The notes: generated by a model not told the origin, from the sequence alone. DNA of 64,000 bases from Myxococcota bacterium (GCA_965223435.1 CBDCWQ010000020.1:661357-725356), one strand, 5' to 3'. Positions 46,168-55,752 are shown, numbered from the stretch's first letter. Program-made: numbers and translations.

Positions 46168-48489
46168 TTATCGTCTGCCTTCGCGGGCGGTCGATAACAG
46201 GGACGCATTTCGTTTGGACCCATCGAGCTCTACAGCGGTTTCGAGGGCTTCGATGGCCTGAACGCGATCGCCACGCATCAGGGCCATTTCTCCTTGCTTC
46301 ACGAGCATATCCGCCGCGTACTGGCGCTCGGTGGCGTCGAACAGCTGCTTACGATAGCGGACGCGCATGCCGTGGTTGATGAGCAGTCCATAGGCCTGCT
46401 CCACCAGTTTTTTTGCCTCGTCCGCGATGGATTTGACGTTTTCCGGAGCGCTCCTGAGTGGCGGTGCGGTGGTGTTGAACTCTCGTTTGGCTTTTTCGAA
46501 GGCTTCGCGGAAACTGCTGTGGTGTGCGGACCAGTGCACCCCCAGCACTTCGAAGTGGTTCATTCCTTTGAGGTGTTCGAGTCGCGTGCCAAGCTCTTTT
46601 TCTAGGATGCGGATGGATGCGGCAATGGGGCCGGTCAGCTCACCGGTGGGGGCGCCCGGATCCTGAATGTGTAAAAGCCCGCTGCTGAGCGCCAGTCCCA
46701 GAATTCGAAGGGACCCGAGGCGACCTATGGGGCTGCCCGTGACCGCTTCCAAGATGGTGCGGCTGCCGTCGAATTGCAGCTGAAGAAAGCGGACCTCCTT
46801 TTGCTGAAGCTGGAGGGTCGCACAAACTTTATCGAGATCTTCGTCGACAACGGCAATCTGCCCGAGCTTCTTGCCGTAGAGTCGCTGAAGTTCAGTCGAA
46901 CCGAGCGCCTCGTAACGGGTTCGAAAATGCCGACCGAGGATACCGAGGCCCTTGGTCAGCACCAGGTCTGCGTCGCCAGGGGGCTCTTCCCAAAGACTCC
47001 ATTGGTAATGACCGCCCGGCCACGCGAACGCGAGATCGAGCTTCACTCTGGCTTGCTCGCGAAGCGCAGAGGATAGATCGCTCTTGGATAACCGCCCCAG
47101 GGCTATCAAGGTGCGGCCAAGCGACTTCCGCCGAGTTTTACTTTCTTCGAGTGCCTCACGAAGTGCGCTTTCGTTGATTTTCTTTTGGGTCACCAGAATG
47201 CGTCCGAGCCCCGTTTCCGGGTCGAACGGTGTGGTTTTGACAAAGGCTACACTCCCGCGATGGACATAAACGCGAAGGCATTTTCCTTGGGTTTCGAGCG
47301 TGAGCACCCCGCGGCCGTTTTTGCGCACCACGTAGTCAAAGACCGAAAGGGCCGTGGCATTCTGGAGATCTTGCGGACCGCTGGCGCGCTTTCGCTGAAA
47401 CGACAAGACGTCGGAAATCGCTGAGGGGGACGATAAGGTACCTCGAAACGCGGGAACGAGGTCCTTGGGTGGCTTTTGTTTGGTGGCCTGCTGGAGCTCC
47501 TCTGGAACCACATCGACCGTGGCTTTGGTCGGTGGATTGGGATGGTTAGGGTCTTGGCCTTCTAAGAATGCGGACAGTTTCTCTATGGTTCCGGCGGCGT
47601 CCACCAAGGACAGCCCGAGGCGCCCTCCGTTTGCGAAGACCACATCGGCCTCCAGCTTGAGGATCGGGTCCGATCCCGGGGTGACCAATTCGAGGGTTTG
47701 CCGCGACCGGAGAGGCAAGGGGGCCGCGCGGACCAGCAAACCACCGTTTTTGAGATTCGACTTCAATTCGAGCTTCAGTTGCGCAACGTCCGCGAAGGTG
47801 ACGATGCCATCCGTGAGCGTGGGCAGCTCTGCATGGGCATCTTGGGTTGCGTCCTTTCGGTCTGAAGGGGCCCGAGCGGGTGGCCCTGGGTCCCTGGCCG
47901 GTTCGTCCGAAGGGGCTTTGGGCTCGGTGGTTTCCGGAGACTTCGGTGAAGTGAGTCGTACGCCACGTGCCGGTTTTCGGCTGCGCGGAGGAGGTGCCCC
48001 CTTCGGCGGTGTGGGCCTGGTGCTCATCTGAGGCTTAGAGCGGGTGTGCACCGGCTTGTCTTCGCCTGGTCCACTTTTTTCGACCAGATGTCTCAGCGTG
48101 CTTTCCCAGAGCGGTTTCACCCGGTCGAGGTGTTTGGCAACGAGATCGGGATCGAGCACCTCTAAGGTGATCCATTCGCCTTCGCGACGCGCGATCCGAG
48201 TATGGATTCTCAAACGCCCGGCCCCCTCAATGCACAGCTGAAAGTTTTCGCCCAAGGCCCCCTCCGGTCGAATGACATGGAGCAAGCCGTGTCGAATTTC
48301 CGCCAGGTACAGGCCGAGCAGCATGGCGGCGTCGTCGATGCGAAGCAGATCATCTTCGAGCCGTCTTAGGGCAATGGCCTTGAATGCAAGCGGAAGCTCC
48401 TCTGCGACCGTGTCTCGGTTGATATCCGATATCGAGGGCTGAGTAGGGGCTCGGTCGCTGTGGGTCATCTCAAGGCTCCGTAAGACCAA
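46168..48489 (-). CDS. Multidomain regulatory protein (PilZ-like, DUF4388-like, degenerate J-domain-like, TPR-like)
   Basis: 773 aa. The DUF4388-like segment is LSVFDYVVRKNGRGVLTLETQGKCLRVYVHRGSVAF. The segment MNHFEVLGVHWSAHHSSFREAFEKAKREF is J-domain-like but lacks HPD. Confidence 0.55.
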   Translation of the reverse strand: MVLRSLEMTHSDRAPTQPSISDINRDTVAEELPLAFKAIALRRLEDDLLRIDDAAMLLGLYLAEIRHGLLHVIRPEGALGENFQLCIEGAGRLRIHTRIARREGEWITLEVLDPDLVAKHLDRVKPLWESTLRHLVEKSGPGEDKPVHTRSKPQMSTRPTPPKGAPPPRSRKPARGVRLTSPKSPETTEPKAPSDEPARDPGPPARAPSDRKDATQDAHAELPTLTDGIVTFADVAQLKLELKSNLKNGGLLVRAAPLPLRSRQTLELVTPGSDPILKLEADVVFANGGRLGLSLVDAAGTIEKLSAFLEGQDPNHPNPPTKATVDVVPEELQQATKQKPPKDLVPAFRGTLSSPSAISDVLSFQRKRASGPQDLQNATALSVFDYVVRKNGRGVLTLETQGKCLRVYVHRGSVAFVKTTPFDPETGLGRILVTQKKINESALREALEESKTRRKSLGRTLIALGRLSKSDLSSALREQARVKLDLAFAWPGGHYQWSLWEEPPGDADLVLTKGLGILGRHFRTRYEALGSTELQRLYGKKLGQIAVVDEDLDKVCATLQLQQKEVRFLQLQFDGSRTILEAVTGSPIGRLGSLRILGLALSSGLLHIQDPGAPTGELTGPIAASIRILEKELGTRLEHLKGMNHFEVLGVHWSAHHSSFREAFEKAKREFNTTAPPLRSAPENVKSIADEAKKLVEQAYGLLINHGMRVRYRKQLFDATERQYAADMLVKQGEMALMRGDRVQAIEALETAVELDGSKRNASLLSTAREGRR

Positions 48490-48817: not shown

Positions 48818-49315
48818 GTGACGGTGGGTGCAACCAAGGCCTGGGCAGGTGATGAAGCGCCTGTCGTCTATTATCGCTACCAAGACGAATCCGGCGAGGT
48901 CACCGTCGTCGACGCTTTGGAGCGCATTCCTGAAAAGTATCGCGCCGGGGCCCAAGAAGTCATCGTCGGTGTAGAAACCCAAGCCCAGCGTGTGGTTCGA
49001 ACCCTTGGCGAAGCGACAAAAGGGGCCAAGCCTTTTGTTTATGGTCTGGATGGTCCGTCGGCCCTCGCCGGCGCCGGGGCGATGGCCATGGTGTTTTTCG
49101 CGCTGGCGTTCCTTCGGCCCATGCGCCGGGTGGTCGTGAAGACGGGGTTGTTGCTGCTTGGTGCCGGGCTCTTGGGCGGTGCCTACTTCGGTTGGTTGGA
49201 CCGGGCGTCTCGCCCTCAGGCAGGACGATCGGACGCGTTTTTGGGCCGTGGCGACGGGGATGGGGTCGCCAGCGATCGGGCCTACGAAAAACGCTTCACG
49301 AGGCGTGGCTTTTGA
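48818..49315 (+). CDS. Hypothetical membrane protein
   Basis: 165 aa with a GTG start. It has two hydrophobic helices (AMAMVFFALAFL, LLLLGAGLLGGAYF). Confidence 0.35.
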   Translation: MTVGATKAWAGDEAPVVYYRYQDESGEVTVVDALERIPEKYRAGAQEVIVGVETQAQRVVRTLGEATKGAKPFVYGLDGPSALAGAGAMAMVFFALAFLRPMRRVVVKTGLLLLGAGLLGGAYFGWLDRASRPQAGRSDAFLGRGDGDGVASDRAYEKRFTRRGF

Positions 49316-49617
49316 GTTCCGTCCGTCATCCCGTGGAAGTTCGCAATGACCGCGACAATGGACGCTTGCTCGTCTCCTGGAGCGACAGCACGAGGCTGCA
49401 GTACCCCTACGATTTTCTGCGCAATGCGTGTCCCTGTGCCGGATGTCGCGGACACAGCCCCGGGGAAGTGCCCCCACCTCAACAGCAGGGCGTCGTCCTC
49501 CAGCGCATTCATGAAGTTGGAACCTACGCGCTTCGTTTCGATTGGTCCGATGGCCACACCACCGGTATCTACGCCTGGTCCTATCTCGAGGACATCGGCC
49601 AGGCCGTGGTCGCGTGA
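49312..49617 (+). CDS. DUF971-family (gamma-butyrobetaine hydroxylase N-terminal-like) small protein
   Basis: It has the motifs LLVSWSDSTRLQYPYDFLRNACPCAGCRGH and YALRFDWSDGHTTGIYAWSYL. The start is non-ATG: TTG at 49312 or GTG at 49339. Confidence 0.5.
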   Translation: MSSVRHPVEVRNDRDNGRLLVSWSDSTRLQYPYDFLRNACPCAGCRGHSPGEVPPPQQQGVVLQRIHEVGTYALRFDWSDGHTTGIYAWSYLEDIGQAVVA

Positions 49618-49873: not shown

Positions 49874-51187
49874 ATGGAGAATACCCTAGCCGGCGCGTTC
49901 TCGGCGGCGGAGACCCAGTTCGCGGCGGGGCAGTATCGCGAGGCGCTGACGTCGTACATGGCGGTGGTCAAAGCCGCCCCTCGGTTTACGCGGGCTCGCT
50001 ACCGCATTGCGGACTCCCTTCTCAACCTGGGTGACAAGCCGCGGGCCAAGGAGGTCTACAAGAGTCTCGCGTGGTACTACATCAAGGCGGGACACCCGTT
50101 ACTTGGCCTGGTGGTTTGCAAGATGGTGCTGGCCCTCGACCCCAGCTACAGCGACCTTCTGAACATTCTCGCTGAGCTTTACTCTTCTGAATCAGACCGC
50201 GTGGCTGCGGATGTGGAGTTGCCAGAAGCCTTGCCTTTACCCGACGGCGCACCGTTGCCTGATGTCGAAAATTGGGATGCCTCTACCCTTTTTGAGTCCG
50301 CAGCCAAGATTGCAGGTGACACCGAATCCATCACCAGCGTTCCGACCCGTTTCCCGATGATTCCCCTGTTTTCGCACCTGACTGAAGATGCGTTTATCAA
50401 GGTTGTCGGTAGCCTGCGTCTACGTCGTCATACCCACGGTGAGCGAATTCTTACGGAAGGAGAGAAGGGCGACTCATTTTTTATCCTCGCCGATGGGGTG
50501 GTTGTGGTGTCGAAACGTCTGAAAGGAAAGGAGACGGTTCTGGCTCACCTCCATCAAGGCGCAGTTTTTGGGGAGATGGCTTTGGTTTCGAATGCGTCGC
50601 GGGCGGCGACCGTCATGGCCCTGGGCGATGTCGACCTTCTTGAGCTTTCGCGCGCCGACTTAGAGAATCATGCGGGCGAGCTCGAAAGCGTCAAGGAGGC
50701 GCTCAGGAAGTTCACCCGCGGCCGATTTTTGGCGAACTTGGCGGCCACCAGTCCTCTTTTTCGGCCGTTGTCCAAGCCCGATCGGCGGGCGCTGATCCAA
50801 AAATTCAATCCCAGAAAAGTATCGTCCGGGGACATCCTGATCGAGGAGGGCCGGATGGGCGACGGTCTGTACCTGGTTTTGCGGGGTGATTACCGGGTGT
50901 CCAAGCAAGGCGGGCCCCGCGGGCTCGAGCTGGCAACCCTACGCGGCGGAGATGTATTTGGGGAGATTTCCCTGATGCGCGACGAGCCTACCACCGCAAC
51001 CGTGACCGCGACCTCTCCCGGAGAAGTCTTATTCTTACCGCGTGAGGCTTTTGGCGACATGATCAGCCAGCACCCGCAAACCAAGCAAGCGCTGGCGGAA
51101 ATCTCAGAAGAGCGACTTCGGGTCCTCAAGGAAAAGATGGTGGCCACCGGCGACATCATCACCAACGATGCGGAGCTCCTGTTCTGA
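49874..51187 (+). CDS. Tandem cyclic-nucleotide-binding-domain protein with N-terminal TPR-like region
   Basis: It has two CAP-type cNMP-binding domains. The first contains GEMALVSNASRAATVMA. The second contains GEISLMRDEPTTATVTA. Confidence 0.8.
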   Translation: MENTLAGAFSAAETQFAAGQYREALTSYMAVVKAAPRFTRARYRIADSLLNLGDKPRAKEVYKSLAWYYIKAGHPLLGLVVCKMVLALDPSYSDLLNILAELYSSESDRVAADVELPEALPLPDGAPLPDVENWDASTLFESAAKIAGDTESITSVPTRFPMIPLFSHLTEDAFIKVVGSLRLRRHTHGERILTEGEKGDSFFILADGVVVVSKRLKGKETVLAHLHQGAVFGEMALVSNASRAATVMALGDVDLLELSRADLENHAGELESVKEALRKFTRGRFLANLAATSPLFRPLSKPDRRALIQKFNPRKVSSGDILIEEGRMGDGLYLVLRGDYRVSKQGGPRGLELATLRGGDVFGEISLMRDEPTTATVTATSPGEVLFLPREAFGDMISQHPQTKQALAEISEERLRVLKEKMVATGDIITNDAELLF

Positions 51188-51308: not shown

Positions 51309-52244
51309 ATGTTGGACCCTGGCTCCATAGTATGGGTGCTCGTTTTGGGTGCGGCGGCGGTAGGGGTCGGTGCGGCGGGCTTGGTGGCCCTCCTGTACAG
51401 CGTGCTGACCTACGCCGTTTGGCTGGTGGAGCGGGGGCAGCGCGGGCGTTCTCCGCTCAAAGGTGCGGGCCGGGAGTGGGGACAGTTTCAGACCTCGGCG
51501 GCCATTGAGTTTCTGTCTTCGGCCCTTTTGTTTTTGGTTCATCCCTTTGGCGCCATTGATCCGTTGCCACCCCGGGAACGGGTACTTTACGGACGCCGAC
51601 CGGTGCTTTTGGTCCACGGTTATGCGCAAACGCGTTCCAACTTTGCGTTGTTGGCTTTTCGATTGGCGTCGATGGGCTTGGGGCCCTTGTATGCGGTGAA
51701 TCTCAGGCCGTATCGCGCCAGCATCCGTGACCACGCGGCGTTGGTGTCGGACCGCATTGATGAAATTCTTCGCACCACGGGTGCGCAGAAAATCGACATT
51801 GTTGCCCATTCTATGGGCGGCTTGGTGGCACGGGTCGCAGAATCGATGGGGGAGCGTCGGCGCGTGCGGCGCCTGGTCACCCTGGGCACGCCGCATCGGG
51901 GCACAAGGATGGCTTTTTTGGCCTTCGGCGAGTGTGGCGCAGAGATGCGAGAGGGGTCAGATTTTGTGAAGTCTCTGCCACCATCGCCTCAAGGGCTCAT
52001 CGTGGCCATCAGCAGCGAACATGACAACGTCATTGTGCCTGCCGAGAACGCCCGAATTGGCGATTCGGGGCGGAACGTGGTTGTGAGCCACGTAGGGCAT
52101 ATGTCGCTGCTTTTGAACGAACAGGTGGCGGAGATCGTGGGAACGTCTTTGGGGGAAGATATTCAGACCACTCAGGATTTGCTGGCGGCCGTGTCGCCTG
52201 AGGTTGCCACTGTGCGGGCCTCGTCGGTTCGTCTTGCCGGGTAA
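51309..52244 (+). CDS. Membrane-anchored alpha/beta hydrolase (lipase family)
   Basis: It has an N-terminal TM helix, VLLVHGY and a nucleophile elbow AHSMGG. It resembles a class 2/PGAP1-like lipase. Confidence 0.65.
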   Translation: MLDPGSIVWVLVLGAAAVGVGAAGLVALLYSVLTYAVWLVERGQRGRSPLKGAGREWGQFQTSAAIEFLSSALLFLVHPFGAIDPLPPRERVLYGRRPVLLVHGYAQTRSNFALLAFRLASMGLGPLYAVNLRPYRASIRDHAALVSDRIDEILRTTGAQKIDIVAHSMGGLVARVAESMGERRRVRRLVTLGTPHRGTRMAFLAFGECGAEMREGSDFVKSLPPSPQGLIVAISSEHDNVIVPAENARIGDSGRNVVVSHVGHMSLLLNEQVAEIVGTSLGEDIQTTQDLLAAVSPEVATVRASSVRLAG

Positions 52245-52250
52245 TAAGCT

Positions 52251-53342
52251 TTGAATCGGAAGAACAAAGGCCCACTGTTGGCACCGGGTCGAATTGCGTC
52301 TGATGCCTCACGAACCACCCTCGAACCCGGATGGCTAGGCCATCAGCCCCCGGCACCAGAGCTTGTTGCCCAAAGTTTGTCGCATTCGTTTCAAGTTGTG
52401 GTCGGAAAAGGTGGCGTAGGCAAGACGACCATGGCGTCGGCCATGGCCCTCCATGCCTCTCGGGGGGGACTCCGAACGCTCTTACTGGAGGTCAACGCCC
52501 CGGATGATGCGGCGCACTGCCTTGGCGTTCGTGCCGCGGTGGATGAACCCAAAGAGGTTCTGCCGAATTTGTGGCTCTGTCGCATGACACCGGAGGGGGC
52601 TCTCAGGGAATACGCGTTGATGGTTCTCAAGTTTCGTGCCCTACACAATCTCGTTCTCGAGAACCGGGTCGTGAAATATCTTCTTCGGTCCATACCCTCT
52701 CTGGGCGAGTTTAATATGTTTGGCAAAGCTTGGTTTCATGCCACTGAGCTTCTCGACGATGGCACGCCCCGCTATGAGCGGGTGTTCGTGGATGCCCCTT
52801 CCACGGGGCACGCGCTGACTTTCTTGTCGGCAGCGCGAACGGTTGCTGATCTGGCGCCCCAGGGAACCATGAAAGAGGCTTCGGAACGCATGGCTCTTCT
52901 GCTTGAAGCCGACTCGAGTTGCTTGCACGTAGTTTCGTTGGCTGAAGAGATGCCGGTGAACGAAGCGCTCGAGCTTATTCGGAGCGCGCGCGAACGACTT
53001 CATATCGCGCCCGGCCTTCTTTTTGTGAATCGGGTCATCGAGCCTTGGGCGACCAAAGAAGAACGGGCATTGCTTGAGCAGGCGGAAAAAGAGGCAGAGG
53101 CTCAGGCGGGCCTTCAGGCCTATGCCGAAGTATTGCGGTTTTGCCGGAACCGGGAACTGGTTGCTAGGCAGTCTGTATTGCGACTCCGCAACGAGGGTGG
53201 ATGGCCCATGGTGTTGGTCCCAGAACGCCGCTCTTTGGAAGATGTGGTGTCGGTTTTGGCGCAGGCGAGCAGCGACGGTCCGTCCGCCGAGGCTGCCCGG
53301 AGTCTCGGGCGTGGTTCGCTTGGGGAAGGGAACGATGGGTAA
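52251..53342 (+). CDS. ArsA/Get3-like anion-transporting-type ATPase, paralogue 1
   Basis: It has a deviant Walker A motif VVGKGGVGKTTMASAMA and ParA/MinD-superfamily ArsA-like architecture. The start is uncertain: non-ATG, with TTG candidates at 52251, 52278 and 52377. Confidence 0.68.
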   Translation: MNRKNKGPLLAPGRIASDASRTTLEPGWLGHQPPAPELVAQSLSHSFQVVVGKGGVGKTTMASAMALHASRGGLRTLLLEVNAPDDAAHCLGVRAAVDEPKEVLPNLWLCRMTPEGALREYALMVLKFRALHNLVLENRVVKYLLRSIPSLGEFNMFGKAWFHATELLDDGTPRYERVFVDAPSTGHALTFLSAARTVADLAPQGTMKEASERMALLLEADSSCLHVVSLAEEMPVNEALELIRSARERLHIAPGLLFVNRVIEPWATKEERALLEQAEKEAEAQAGLQAYAEVLRFCRNRELVARQSVLRLRNEGGWPMVLVPERRSLEDVVSVLAQASSDGPSAEAARSLGRGSLGEGNDG

Positions 53343-54573
53343 GCGGGGAACGCGCATAGCGGGCACGCAGGCGGAGGTGCAGGCCGGGCTCGGCGATATT
53401 TTGGCGAAGGTTAGGCTCGTGGTGTCCGTGGGCGCCGGGGGCGTGGGCAAGACATCGACATCGGCGGCTATGGCGATTCATGGTGCGTGTGAGGGTAGGC
53501 GAAGTTTGGTGTTGACCATAGATCCTGCGCGACGTCTTGCGAATGCTTTAGGACTGGCTGAGTTTGGCAATCAAGAGCGTGTTGTTGAACCCGAGGCGTT
53601 CCGAGCATGTGGACTCGAGCCGCCCTCTGGACGGCTCTCGTGCATGATGCTCGACGTGAAGAGCGCGTGGGATGAAGTGGTTCGCCAACATCACCCCGAT
53701 GCCGAAGCCAGAGCCCGCTTGGTTTCCAATCGACTGTTTGGCGCGCTGTCTCGTCTTGCTGGATCCCAAGAGTATATGGCGATGGAGAAGCTTTACGAGC
53801 TTGCCAATCGCACCGAAGATCCGCTGGATTTTATCGTGCTTGACACGCCGCCCACCGAGCATGCGTTTGATTTTTTGAACGCGCCCTCACGAATCTTGGA
53901 CGCGCTCGACAACGAGGCAACCCGTTGGATCTTGGAACCTTTCGAGAAGAGGGGGCGCATTACGGACAAGCTGTTTGACGCGGGCTCTTCCTTCCTCATT
54001 CGGAGCATTTCTCGGTTCACCGGACCCGATTTTTTGCAGGAGATTGCGGAGCTTTTGTCCGGGTTTCAGGGCATGTTTGACGGGTTCAAAGAGAGGGCAA
54101 AAGCGGTGCGCAGTCTTTTCAAAGACCAAGGCACGGCGTTTGTTTTGGTGGGAACCCCCGACCGCGTGGGGATTGAGCATGTCCGTGAGTTTGACGCCCG
54201 GCTTCGGGAGCGCGGTATCGATGTGGCGGCCCTGGTACTCAACCGATCGTTTCAGGACCCCTTTCGCCATGGACGCGCCCAAGATTCAGGTGCCTTTCGA
54301 AGCTTGGTTTTTTCACTCGGGGGGACAACGGAGCTGGTGGAACGGGTGGACGGGTTGCTTCAGCACGCCCAAAAAAGTGCCCAGTCCCAATCGGAGACCG
54401 TCGCCAAGCTGAAGCGTCAGTTCAACCATCAGCCCATGATATTGGTTCCCGAGTTCGACGCCGATGTGCACGATCTGGTTGGTCTGAAGGCGATGGGCAA
54501 ACACCTCTTCGCACGTGGAAGCGACTTTTTGTGCGTAGGCCGAGAACCCGATTCTCGAGCCGCTTCATTTTGA
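53335..54573 (+). CDS. ArsA/Get3-like anion-transporting-type ATPase, paralogue 2
   Basis: It has a P-loop VSVGAGGVGKTSTSAAMA and an ArsA-like TIDPARRL motif. Its ATG overlaps the paralogue 1 stop (ATGGGTAA). Confidence 0.75.
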   Translation: MGKRGTRIAGTQAEVQAGLGDILAKVRLVVSVGAGGVGKTSTSAAMAIHGACEGRRSLVLTIDPARRLANALGLAEFGNQERVVEPEAFRACGLEPPSGRLSCMMLDVKSAWDEVVRQHHPDAEARARLVSNRLFGALSRLAGSQEYMAMEKLYELANRTEDPLDFIVLDTPPTEHAFDFLNAPSRILDALDNEATRWILEPFEKRGRITDKLFDAGSSFLIRSISRFTGPDFLQEIAELLSGFQGMFDGFKERAKAVRSLFKDQGTAFVLVGTPDRVGIEHVREFDARLRERGIDVAALVLNRSFQDPFRHGRAQDSGAFRSLVFSLGGTTELVERVDGLLQHAQKSAQSQSETVAKLKRQFNHQPMILVPEFDADVHDLVGLKAMGKHLFARGSDFLCVGREPDSRAASF

Positions 54574-54585
54574 GGGTGACGCTCT

Positions 54586-55752
54586 ATGCTGAGGCGTGCC
54601 TTCGAGTGTAGCGCGCACCGTGCGGTGCCTGCCTTCCTCGTCGCTCTCCTGCTCGCTTGCGCGGGCCCGAGGGTCAAAGATGATGCTTTTCTGCGTTCAG
54701 TCGACCCCGTCGAGATGGATCCAGTCGTCGTTGTTCGTGCAAAAGATCCGCTGATCGGTCTCGATGGCTACGATGCCAAGCAGCTTCTTGAGCTCAGCAC
54801 GAAACTTTACCACGAAGAAGAATACGCCCGCTCTCTTTTGGTGCTCGAACGATTTCACACGCTGTTTTCAGACTCTGCCTTGGCGCCTCAAGCGGCGTAT
54901 CAGCGGGGGCTGGCCCACGAAGCGCTTGAACGCTATGAGGAGGCTTTGCCCGCCTATCAGGTGATCATGGAAAATTTTCCTGAGGCGCCGGTTTTCAATG
55001 ATGCACACTTTCGTGCGGCCGTTTGCCTTGGCAAACTCTCCCGGTGGGAGGAAGTCTCGTCGCTTTTTACCCGCATTCGGCAGTTCGAGGGTTTGTCGAC
55101 CATGGATGAGCTCGAGGCGCGGGTGGGTCTTGGCGTGTCTTTGTTTATGCAAGCGGCGTACACGCGCGCCGAGGGTGCGTTTCAGGCGGCGGTGTTCTTT
55201 TACGAGGACCAAGAAAAACAAGAGTATATCCCGGGGGAGTATTTTCTTGGTCAGTCGCGCTTTTACCTCGGGGAAATCTATGCCCGCGCTTTTGAAGCGA
55301 AGCGCTTGAGCCATCCCCATGCTGGGGACAAGGATTGGGCCGAAACCATGGGTGTGGAGCTCGAGGAAAAGTGTCAGGCGCTTCTTCGTGCGCAAAACAA
55401 TTTTATTCGTGCCATTCGCGTGGGTCACGCGGGGTGGGCCACCGCGGCTGGCTATCGGATCGGTTCGTTGTACGAGCGTTTGTACGATGATTTGATGAAA
55501 CTCCCCGTTCCCGCCGAGCTCGACGAAGAGTCGGCCCAATACTACCGACAGCAGGTCTGGGAGCGGGTCAGTGTGCTGGTGGTGAAGGCCATCAAAATCT
55601 ATGAGCAGTCCCTGCAAATGGCCGAACGCACGGGGCAGGACAACGAGTGGGTACAGCGTGCTTCAAAGTCGCTCGATCGGATGAAACACTTGTACTTGGA
55701 GTCGTTAAGAGCGCGCGCCGGACAAAGCGAGCCCAAAAGCGCTCGAGAATAA
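54586..55752 (+). CDS. TPR-like lipoprotein
   Basis: It has a lipobox LLLACAG and a GAGGGTG RBS. The body is helical, TPR-like repeats. Confidence 0.55.
   Translation: MLRRAFECSAHRAVPAFLVALLLACAGPRVKDDAFLRSVDPVEMDPVVVVRAKDPLIGLDGYDAKQLLELSTKLYHEEEYARSLLVLERFHTLFSDSALAPQAAYQRGLAHEALERYEEALPAYQVIMENFPEAPVFNDAHFRAAVCLGKLSRWEEVSSLFTRIRQFEGLSTMDELEARVGLGVSLFMQAAYTRAEGAFQAAVFFYEDQEKQEYIPGEYFLGQSRFYLGEIYARAFEAKRLSHPHAGDKDWAETMGVELEEKCQALLRAQNNFIRAIRVGHAGWATAAGYRIGSLYERLYDDLMKLPVPAELDEESAQYYRQQVWERVSVLVVKAIKIYEQSLQMAERTGQDNEWVQRASKSLDRMKHLYLESLRARAGQSEPKSARE

Follow-up and report, generated by a model that had tools for sequence, protein, structure and literature searches.

Distant relatives of the mycobacterial BagA/BagB ATPases, translationally coupled and linked to a TPR lipoprotein gene, in a Myxococcota bacterium

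Introduction

A 64,000-nucleotide (nt) stretch of DNA from a Myxococcota bacterium (GCA_965223435.1, CBDCWQ010000020.1:661357-725356; hereafter the window, with positions counted from its first letter) carries on its forward strand, between 51309 and 55752, four closely spaced open reading frames (ORFs), which encode an alpha/beta-hydrolase, two ArsA-like ATPases, and a TPR lipoprotein. The two ATPase genes raise the question of which system they represent, and of which of their neighbors belong to it. A first-pass annotation, made from the sequence alone, described an unusual pair of separate ArsA/Get3-class paralogues, which would act as a heterodimer in membrane targeting or envelope assembly rather than in metalloid resistance, and counted among their neighbors a lipase, the TPR lipoprotein, and a giant membrane protein encoded convergently.

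The analysis presented here indicates that the two proteins are, with good probability, distant Myxococcota-type orthologues of the Mycobacterium tuberculosis BagA/BagB heterodimer (Rv3679/Rv3680), and represent neither a novel system nor an ArsA that was recently split. This degree of confidence applies to the explanation as a whole, which comprises BagAB orthology, a coupled heterodimer, asymmetric nucleotide sites, and a module formed with the TPR lipoprotein.

Results and Discussion

Identity of the ATPase pair

Both ATPases pass the Pfam profile ArsA_ATPase (PF02374; gathering score 24.3), with 67.0 bits for the product of the upstream gene and 91.5 bits for that of the downstream gene. 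Among the NCBIfam models, the first protein scores highest with BagA (NF053622, 113.5 bits), followed by the Get3/ArsA/TRC40 model TIGR00345 (58.1), the ArsA model TIGR04291 (53.1), and BagB (39.8). The second protein scores highest with BagB (NF053621, 258.8 bits), followed by TIGR00345 (86.9), TIGR04291 (50.0), and BagA (48.0). Neither protein reaches the cut-offs of TIGR00345 (135) and TIGR04291 (650). The same division is found among the protein sequences of the PDB, where the top match of the first protein is 6bs3_A (Rv3679; E = 3.6e-22, with 6bs3_B at 1.3e-8) and that of the second is 6bs3_B (Rv3680; E = 1.1e-51 over residues 19-398, with 6bs3_A at 1e-4). A hidden Markov model of the BagA family, moreover, gives the first protein 340 bits.

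The AlphaFold model of the window BagB (predicted local distance difference test score, pLDDT, of 80.7) likewise has 6bs3_B as its top fold match (E = 5e-23; template modeling (TM) score 0.78, target-normalised), and the next matches are dozens of Get3 chains (E ~1e-15; TM 0.72-0.79, target-normalised), client-bound Get3 structures among them. The PDB entry 6BS3 bears the title 'ADP-bound bacterial Get3-like A and B in Mycobacterium tuberculosis'. Because the closest solved relatives of the two window proteins are thus the two chains of one heterodimer crystal, a heterodimer would, by analogy, also be expected in the window organism, which lends support to the assembly proposed in the first-pass annotation.

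The two window proteins are indeed separate and anciently diverged paralogues, with 25% identity over 161 residues. What does not hold is the notion that their arrangement is unusual, since it is the architecture of the known BagA/BagB (Rv3679/Rv3680) family, already described by the NCBIfam models and the crystal structure. With the M. tuberculosis proteins (PDB 6BS3, 6BS4, and 6BS5), the window pair shares the A-then-B order, the overlap of the two genes, and the fold, and the identity in the aligned regions is ~33% for BagB (from Foldseek) and roughly 30% for BagA (as read from the alignment). The window pair differs in its host, which is diderm and Myxococcota-like, in the 8-nt length of its gene overlap, and in the additional genes of its module, namely that for the TPR lipoprotein and, in a sub-clade, that for the lipase, neither of which is present in any Actinomycetota locus examined. 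Judged by sequence, the pair falls within the wider BagA/BagB orthologue group, outside the narrow mycobacterial equivalog. The genes are likely to be mis-annotated in the sources, which label them 'anion-transporting ArsA' or 'arsenical pump' ATPases.

Table 1. Coordinates of the gene cluster, of the ATPase motifs, and of other features of the window. #1 and #2 denote the upstream and downstream ATPase, respectively.
Feature	Position	Strand	Length or remark
alpha/beta-hydrolase gene (PGAP1/Lipase_2-like), membrane-anchored product	51309-52244	+	311 aa
bagA-like gene (ArsA-like #1), ArsA/Get3-class ATPase, BagA/Rv3679 orthologue group	52251-53342	+	363 aa, counted from the first TTG
bagB-like gene (ArsA-like #2), BagB/Rv3680 orthologue group	53335-54573	+	412 aa from ATG
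bagA/bagB start/stop overlap ATGGGTAA	53335-53342	+	8 nt, read directly from the sequence
TPR-solenoid lipoprotein gene	54586-55752	+	388 aa
giant ORF, convergent to the cluster	55830-63887	-	2685 aa
BagA P-loop GKGGVGKTT	residues 52-60 of #1, nt 52404-52430	+	family consensus GKGGVGK[TS]T
BagA switch I, Asn82 at the catalytic-Asp position	#1		
BagA switch II DAPSTGH	#1		family DAPATGH, ArsA/Get3-like
BagB P-loop GAGGVGKTS	residues 33-41 of #2, nt 53431-53457	+	no signature lysine; family consensus G[S/A/P]GGVGKTT
BagB switch I TIDPARRLA with Asp63	Asp63 at nt 53521-53523	+	family consensus TIDPA[RK]RLA
DUF4388/PatA_N protein with MshE-type c-di-GMP-binding motif	46168-48489	-	
GBBH-like_N protein	49192-49617	+	
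TPR protein with double cNMP-binding domain	49874-51187	+	

Coupling of the two genes and its conservation

At the junction of the two ATPase genes (...aacgATGGGTAAgcgg), the stop of bagA (GGG TAA) and the start of bagB (ATG GGT AAG) have 8 nt in common. The overlap ATGGGTAA and the translational coupling annotated on its basis are therefore confirmed in the sequence, and both are kept as a start/stop overlap in relatives. The adjoining genes also lie close, with 6 nt between the lipase stop and the first possible bagA start, and 12 nt between the bagB stop and the TPR gene. The 5' end of bagA is uncertain, as in-frame TTG candidates occur at 52251, 52278, and 52377, and an exact look-up of the three corresponding N-termini in the protein collection gave no match. 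For bagB, the database call (P0001, 420 residues) begins 8 codons upstream of the ATG; its most probable start is the in-frame GTG at 53311, from which bagB would likewise overlap bagA. The ATG is favored because the closest relatives show the same 8-nt overlap geometry. A scan for promoters and terminators returned counts equal to the shuffled expectation.

BagB-like proteins are widespread: of the candidates scored, 7895 reached E <= 1e-10. The nearest relatives are 57% identical and, where their source is named, come from Myxococcota or 'Deltaproteobacteria' metagenome-assembled genomes. A pattern scan of species-representative genomes yielded 80 bagB loci (L001-L080), which span at least six phyla: Myxococcota (Myxococcus, Archangium, Polyangiaceae, and Bradymonadaceae), Actinomycetota (Solirubrobacterales, Thermoleophilia, Acidimicrobiia, and Phycicoccus), Binatia, Planctomycetota, Acidobacteriota, and Thermodesulfobacteriota. 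At approximately 66 of these 80 loci, bagA lies directly upstream of bagB on the same strand. The overlap between the two genes measures 4 nt (ATGA or GTGA) in 38 of the 66 and 1 nt (TGATG) in at least 10, and the 8-nt form is found in the clade closest to the window.

Natural single-chain fusions, in the order A then B, were also found (P0067, 695 residues; P0097, 659 residues), and these keep both P-loops, as GKGGVGR[ST]T followed by GPGGVGKTS. Together, the conservation of the overlaps and the existence of the fusions imply that coupling and joint action are ancestral in the BagAB family.

Complementary motif losses and a proposed asymmetric ATPase

The motifs of the two families were compared in alignments of 67 BagA and 81 BagB sequences. 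The Walker A strings of the window proteins, GKGGVGKTT and GAGGVGKTS, are exactly those first reported, and they differ at the position of the signature lysine, which is present in BagA (66 of 66 sequences) and missing from BagB (0 of 81). Switch I shows the complementary distribution: its Asp is found in all 81 BagB sequences, and the same position is variable in BagA (Ala in 17, Asn in 15, Asp in 10, and Ser in 10). In an alignment of the two window proteins, Asn82 of BagA pairs with Asp63 of BagB, and Asp63 in turn corresponds to the Asp in STDPAH of ARSA1/Get3. The alignments with the PDB sequences reveal the same asymmetry in M. tuberculosis, with the P-loops GKGGTGKS in Rv3679 and GAGGVGKT in Rv3680, the switch I motif TIDPAxRLA in BagB, and a degenerate switch I in BagA.

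Switch II of the BagB family reads DTPP[TS]x[NH]ALDFL. In addition, the window BagB carries the BagB-specific motifs GSQEYMAMEKL and DTPPTEHAFDFL, the former of which is nearly invariant across the 81 BagB sequences; no family-specific motif was noted in BagA.

Within the SIMIBI/deviant-Walker-A class of ATPases, to which MinD, NifH, Get3, and ArsA belong, the signature lysine of one subunit acts in trans, on the nucleotide of its partner, and the switch I Asp activates the water molecule. The D57N substitution in Get3 is the standard ATP-trapped mutant. It is as the ATP-trapped form that Get3 D57N appears in the title of PDB entry 9ns5. Because the motif losses of BagA and BagB are complementary, these properties of the class suggest that just one of the two ATPase sites in the heterodimer, that centered on BagB, is complete.

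Neither window ATPase contains a transmembrane segment. In the proposed mechanism, BagA and BagB would be soluble cytoplasmic ATPases, which are produced from one mRNA by coupled translation and assemble as a BagA:BagB heterodimer, such that the signature lysine of BagA reaches across the dimer interface into the nucleotide site of BagB. The BagB-centered site would then be complete, combining its own P-loop lysine and its own Asp63 with the trans lysine supplied by BagA. The BagA-centered site would be left without the Asp and without a trans lysine, and would bind nucleotide in a regulatory or structural role.

A TPR lipoprotein as the conserved third gene

The product of the gene downstream of bagB has an N-terminus that resembles a signal sequence, and its lipobox cysteine, Cys25 (nt 54658-54660), is invariant in 29 homologues. 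Its profile matches are confined to weak TPR and YbgF/BamD-like ones, and its structural model (pLDDT 88.2) is an all-alpha solenoid, for which only generic TPR fold matches were obtained. An assignment as BamD or YbgF was considered and rejected, as BamD ranks eighth among the fold matches with a TM score of 0.28 (query-normalised) and the profile scores are weak.

A homologue of this protein is encoded directly downstream of bagB at 13 of the 80 genome loci, every one of them labelled Myxococcota (Myxococcaceae, Archangium, Bradymonadaceae, and others). The linkage was also followed in the reverse direction, in a scan of metagenome contigs for patterns derived solely from the TPR protein. 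These patterns were taken from a narrower alignment, the first TPR alignment being too diverse for a scan, and led to 59 loci with more than 600 nt of upstream sequence. In 56 of the 59, bagB was found on the same strand within ~600 nt upstream of the TPR gene, the distance being within 400 nt in 50 of these 56 and the median gap ~24 nt. Moreover, bagA was also present at every TPR-seeded locus with enough room for it (39 of 39), and the linkage to bagB persists across TPR proteins merely 29-36% identical to that of the window.

The association with the TPR lipoprotein that had been noted in the window is therefore real and conserved in both directions, and bagA, bagB, and the TPR gene form a tight three-gene module in one Myxococcota clade, which includes the genera Myxococcus and Archangium.

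The lipase, the giant ORF, and other neighbors

The lipase matches the Pfam families PGAP1 (45.4 bits), Lipase_2, and Abhydrolase_1, and has a GHSMGG-type elbow and an N-terminal hydrophobic segment. Its standing as a neighbor of the ATPase pair, claimed in the first-pass annotation, holds only in part: an orthologue with 52% identity occupies the same position in a close relative (L161), but the P0002 and P0003 contigs lack the gene, as do all 80 genome loci. The lipase is thus an accessory first gene of the cluster, confined to a sub-clade.

The giant protein, which had likewise been counted as a neighbor, fares worse. Its ORF has no Pfam-A match at E <= 1e-3, and does not adjoin bagAB in any relative examined. 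With neither a family match nor a conserved linkage, it was rejected as a part of the system, its convergent position being incidental.

A gene for a ParA/MinD-like ATPase (Pfam AAA_31, CbiA, and MipZ) lies divergently just upstream of bagA at many of the Myxococcota and Actinomycetota loci, as at L001:7728-8618 and L016:7855-9102 (both on the reverse strand) and at comparable places in many of the loci L001-L080. The gene may represent a second bagAB neighbor that is conserved across phyla; no such gene is found at the corresponding position in the window. An all-against-all single-linkage clustering of the neighboring ORFs left few usable clusters, as one giant cluster was an artefact of GC-rich spurious ORFs.

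A possible role at the envelope

In M. tuberculosis, bagAB (Rv3679/Rv3680) is described as encoding two interacting ATPases implicated in protection from glycerol-derived and nitric oxide toxicity (PMC10597346). Transposon insertions in the M. smegmatis homologues of bagAB give rise to citrate tolerance (PMC10597346). In addition, insertions in M. tuberculosis bagAB improve survival in streptomycin, and insertions in Rv3680 lower fitness in rifampicin (PMC12216072). These phenotypes are compatible with a role in membrane or envelope permeability, although they do not prove one. A literature search for Get3 plus Myxococcus returned nothing relevant.

Together with an exported TPR lipoprotein and, in the sub-clade, a membrane lipase or esterase, BagAB would work at the cytoplasmic membrane or the envelope, possibly through the ATP-gated handling of a hydrophobic client. 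An envelope-associated role would be the most economical reading because of the linked lipoprotein and membrane lipase, taken together with the mycobacterial phenotypes. Only tentatively can a further step be suggested, namely that in the Myxococcota clade BagAB gained a dedicated envelope partner, such that the ATPase and the TPR lipoprotein, with the lipase in some lineages, constitute one module for membrane or envelope homeostasis. If this were true, the conserved partner would be the first genomic clue to the client or process of the BagAB family, that of M. tuberculosis included.

Alternative explanations

The resemblance of the window BagB to Get3/TRC40 raises the possibility that the pair is a bona fide bacterial Get3, a targeting factor whose hydrophobic groove takes up tail-anchored proteins, with their C-terminal transmembrane segment, for delivery to the inner membrane. 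The two share the SIMIBI deviant-Walker-A fold with a helical insertion (TM ~0.75, target-normalised, for the BagB model) and the switch I DPA motif, client-bound Get3 structures fit the model next after 6bs3_B, and the insertion, located between switch I and switch II, comes with the Met-containing, invariant GSQEYMAMEKL. However, the subunits of Get3 form a symmetric homodimer and both carry the signature lysine, and the protein has a CxxC zinc clasp and Get1/2 and Get4/5 as partners, whereas the window pair consists of diverged paralogues in a predicted heterodimer with one degenerate site. Neither window protein contains a CxxC motif, and any CxxC at all is found in just 3 of the 67 BagA and 1 of the 81 BagB sequences. 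Both proteins also fall short of the TIGR00345 cut-off, and the conserved module holds neither a Get1/2-like receptor gene nor a gene for a tail-anchored client; its conserved neighbor is a lipoprotein, and the lipase is anchored N-terminally. Furthermore, a hydrophobic groove of promiscuous binding would not be expected to show the strict invariance of EYMAMEK. A genuine Get3 function is therefore improbable. Still less can be said for a recent split of canonical ArsA into two genes, an explanation that is effectively refuted. Both proteins do match Pfam ArsA_ATPase, BagA keeps a DTAPTGH-like switch II in its DAPSTGH motif, ArsA (for example E. coli R773; PDB 1F48) also has two homologous nucleotide-binding halves, and the rare BagA-BagB fusions resemble its fused architecture. 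Yet in ArsA the halves are fused in one polypeptide, which has three metalloid-binding cysteines and whose gene accompanies arsB and arsD, while the window has two ORFs with their own starts and stops, whose products share only 25% identity and each resemble BagA or BagB more closely than any half of ArsA; the scores with TIGR04291 are a small fraction of its cut-off, and the split arrangement is ancient and occurs in several phyla. A metalloid-binding triad is likewise lacking, as neither family has a conserved Cys column outside what are presumably buried beta-strands, and even at these best-conserved columns the window proteins have Leu79 and Ser31. A Pfam scan of the ~30 main ORFs of the window (every non-nested ORF of at least 200 residues) found no ars family, the ArsB/Acr3-type pump included, although the systematic scan did not extend to ORFs of fewer than 200 residues, the size class of ArsR, ArsC, and ArsD, or to the rest of the genome. 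Metalloid resistance was rejected on these grounds, with no CxxC, no conserved cysteine, and no ars pump gene among the ORFs scanned. Here the first-pass annotation was borne out by both the family alignments and the window, in its remark that neither the Get3 CxxC nor the ArsA triad is obvious, in its observation of no arsenic genes nearby, and in its suggestion that the pair does not serve metalloid resistance; the M. tuberculosis proteins, too, have neither a metalloid nor a zinc site.

A different objection accepts the pair as BagAB-like, and holds instead that the TPR lipoprotein and the lipase are mere syntenic passengers of an ATPase that serves a cytoplasmic process, for example protection against metabolite stress. 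The mycobacterial phenotypes reported in PMC10597346 are metabolic in kind (glycerol and nitric oxide), and the restricted distribution of the TPR gene and the separation of its exported product from cytoplasmic ATPases, both detailed below, point the same way. Conversely, bagB lies ~600 nt or less upstream at 56 of the 59 TPR-seeded loci, across TPR proteins that are only 29-36% identical to the window's, and this weakens the passenger explanation because tight linkage over such divergence usually reflects co-function. The passenger explanation is accordingly regarded as possible but doubtful.

Several observations nevertheless weigh against the preferred explanation, in which the window pair is an asymmetric BagAB heterodimer that forms a module with the TPR lipoprotein. 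The NCBIfam scores are far below the equivalog cut-offs (113.5 against 400 for BagA, and 258.8 against 521 for BagB), so that the window proteins cannot be taken to have the same function as the mycobacterial ones. At 12 loci, mostly of Polyangiales/Polyangiaceae (L039-L041, L044, L045, L052, L056, L058, L064, L068, L072, and L080), bagB has no adjoining bagA, and BagB is without the signature lysine there as well. As for the single complete site, 10 of the 67 BagA sequences carry Asp at the switch I position, and a Glu two residues before the lost Asp is conserved in 63 of the 67 and might substitute for it. Lastly, the TPR gene is absent from the Actinomycetota loci and from approximately nine Myxococcota-labelled loci among the 80, and since the TPR protein is exported and BagAB is cytoplasmic, any cooperation between them must be indirect.

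Significance for the BagAB family

BagAB is an ATPase with a solved structure, and its mycobacterial phenotypes concern stress and antibiotic survival. The coupled pair with complementary motif degeneration is ancient and extends over at least six phyla, and its motif pattern predicts a single complete catalytic site. The linked TPR gene, in turn, offers a concrete way into the search for the client or pathway in Myxococcus species, which are amenable to genetics. Set against the descriptions found, which do not include the primary structural and genetic papers on BagAB, the multi-phylum coupled pair, the complementary motif degeneration, and the strictly linked TPR lipoprotein are additions.

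Other features of the window

The first part of the window, from 1 to 33948, encodes ordinary chromosomal functions, among them a UDP-glucose dehydrogenase, glycosyltransferases, an asparagine synthase, an ammonium transporter, a BBP2 porin, a Ser/Thr kinase with TPR repeats, a ClpB-type AAA+ ATPase, a class I (Trp/Tyr-type) tRNA synthetase, a 1042-residue TPR protein, an ABC-2 exporter pair, an FHA protein, and a P-type cation ATPase. No ars genes are found among the ORFs scanned in this part.

The gene order immediately upstream of the cluster, between 46168 and 51187 (Table 1), is common to the window and the contigs of P0002, P0003, and P0008. Farther upstream, the forward strand between 34290 and 41557 encodes a TamB/AsmA-like protein (1328 residues) and then, after a short overlap, an Omp85/POTRA protein (1095 residues), a TAM-type pair for outer-membrane assembly that implies a diderm host.

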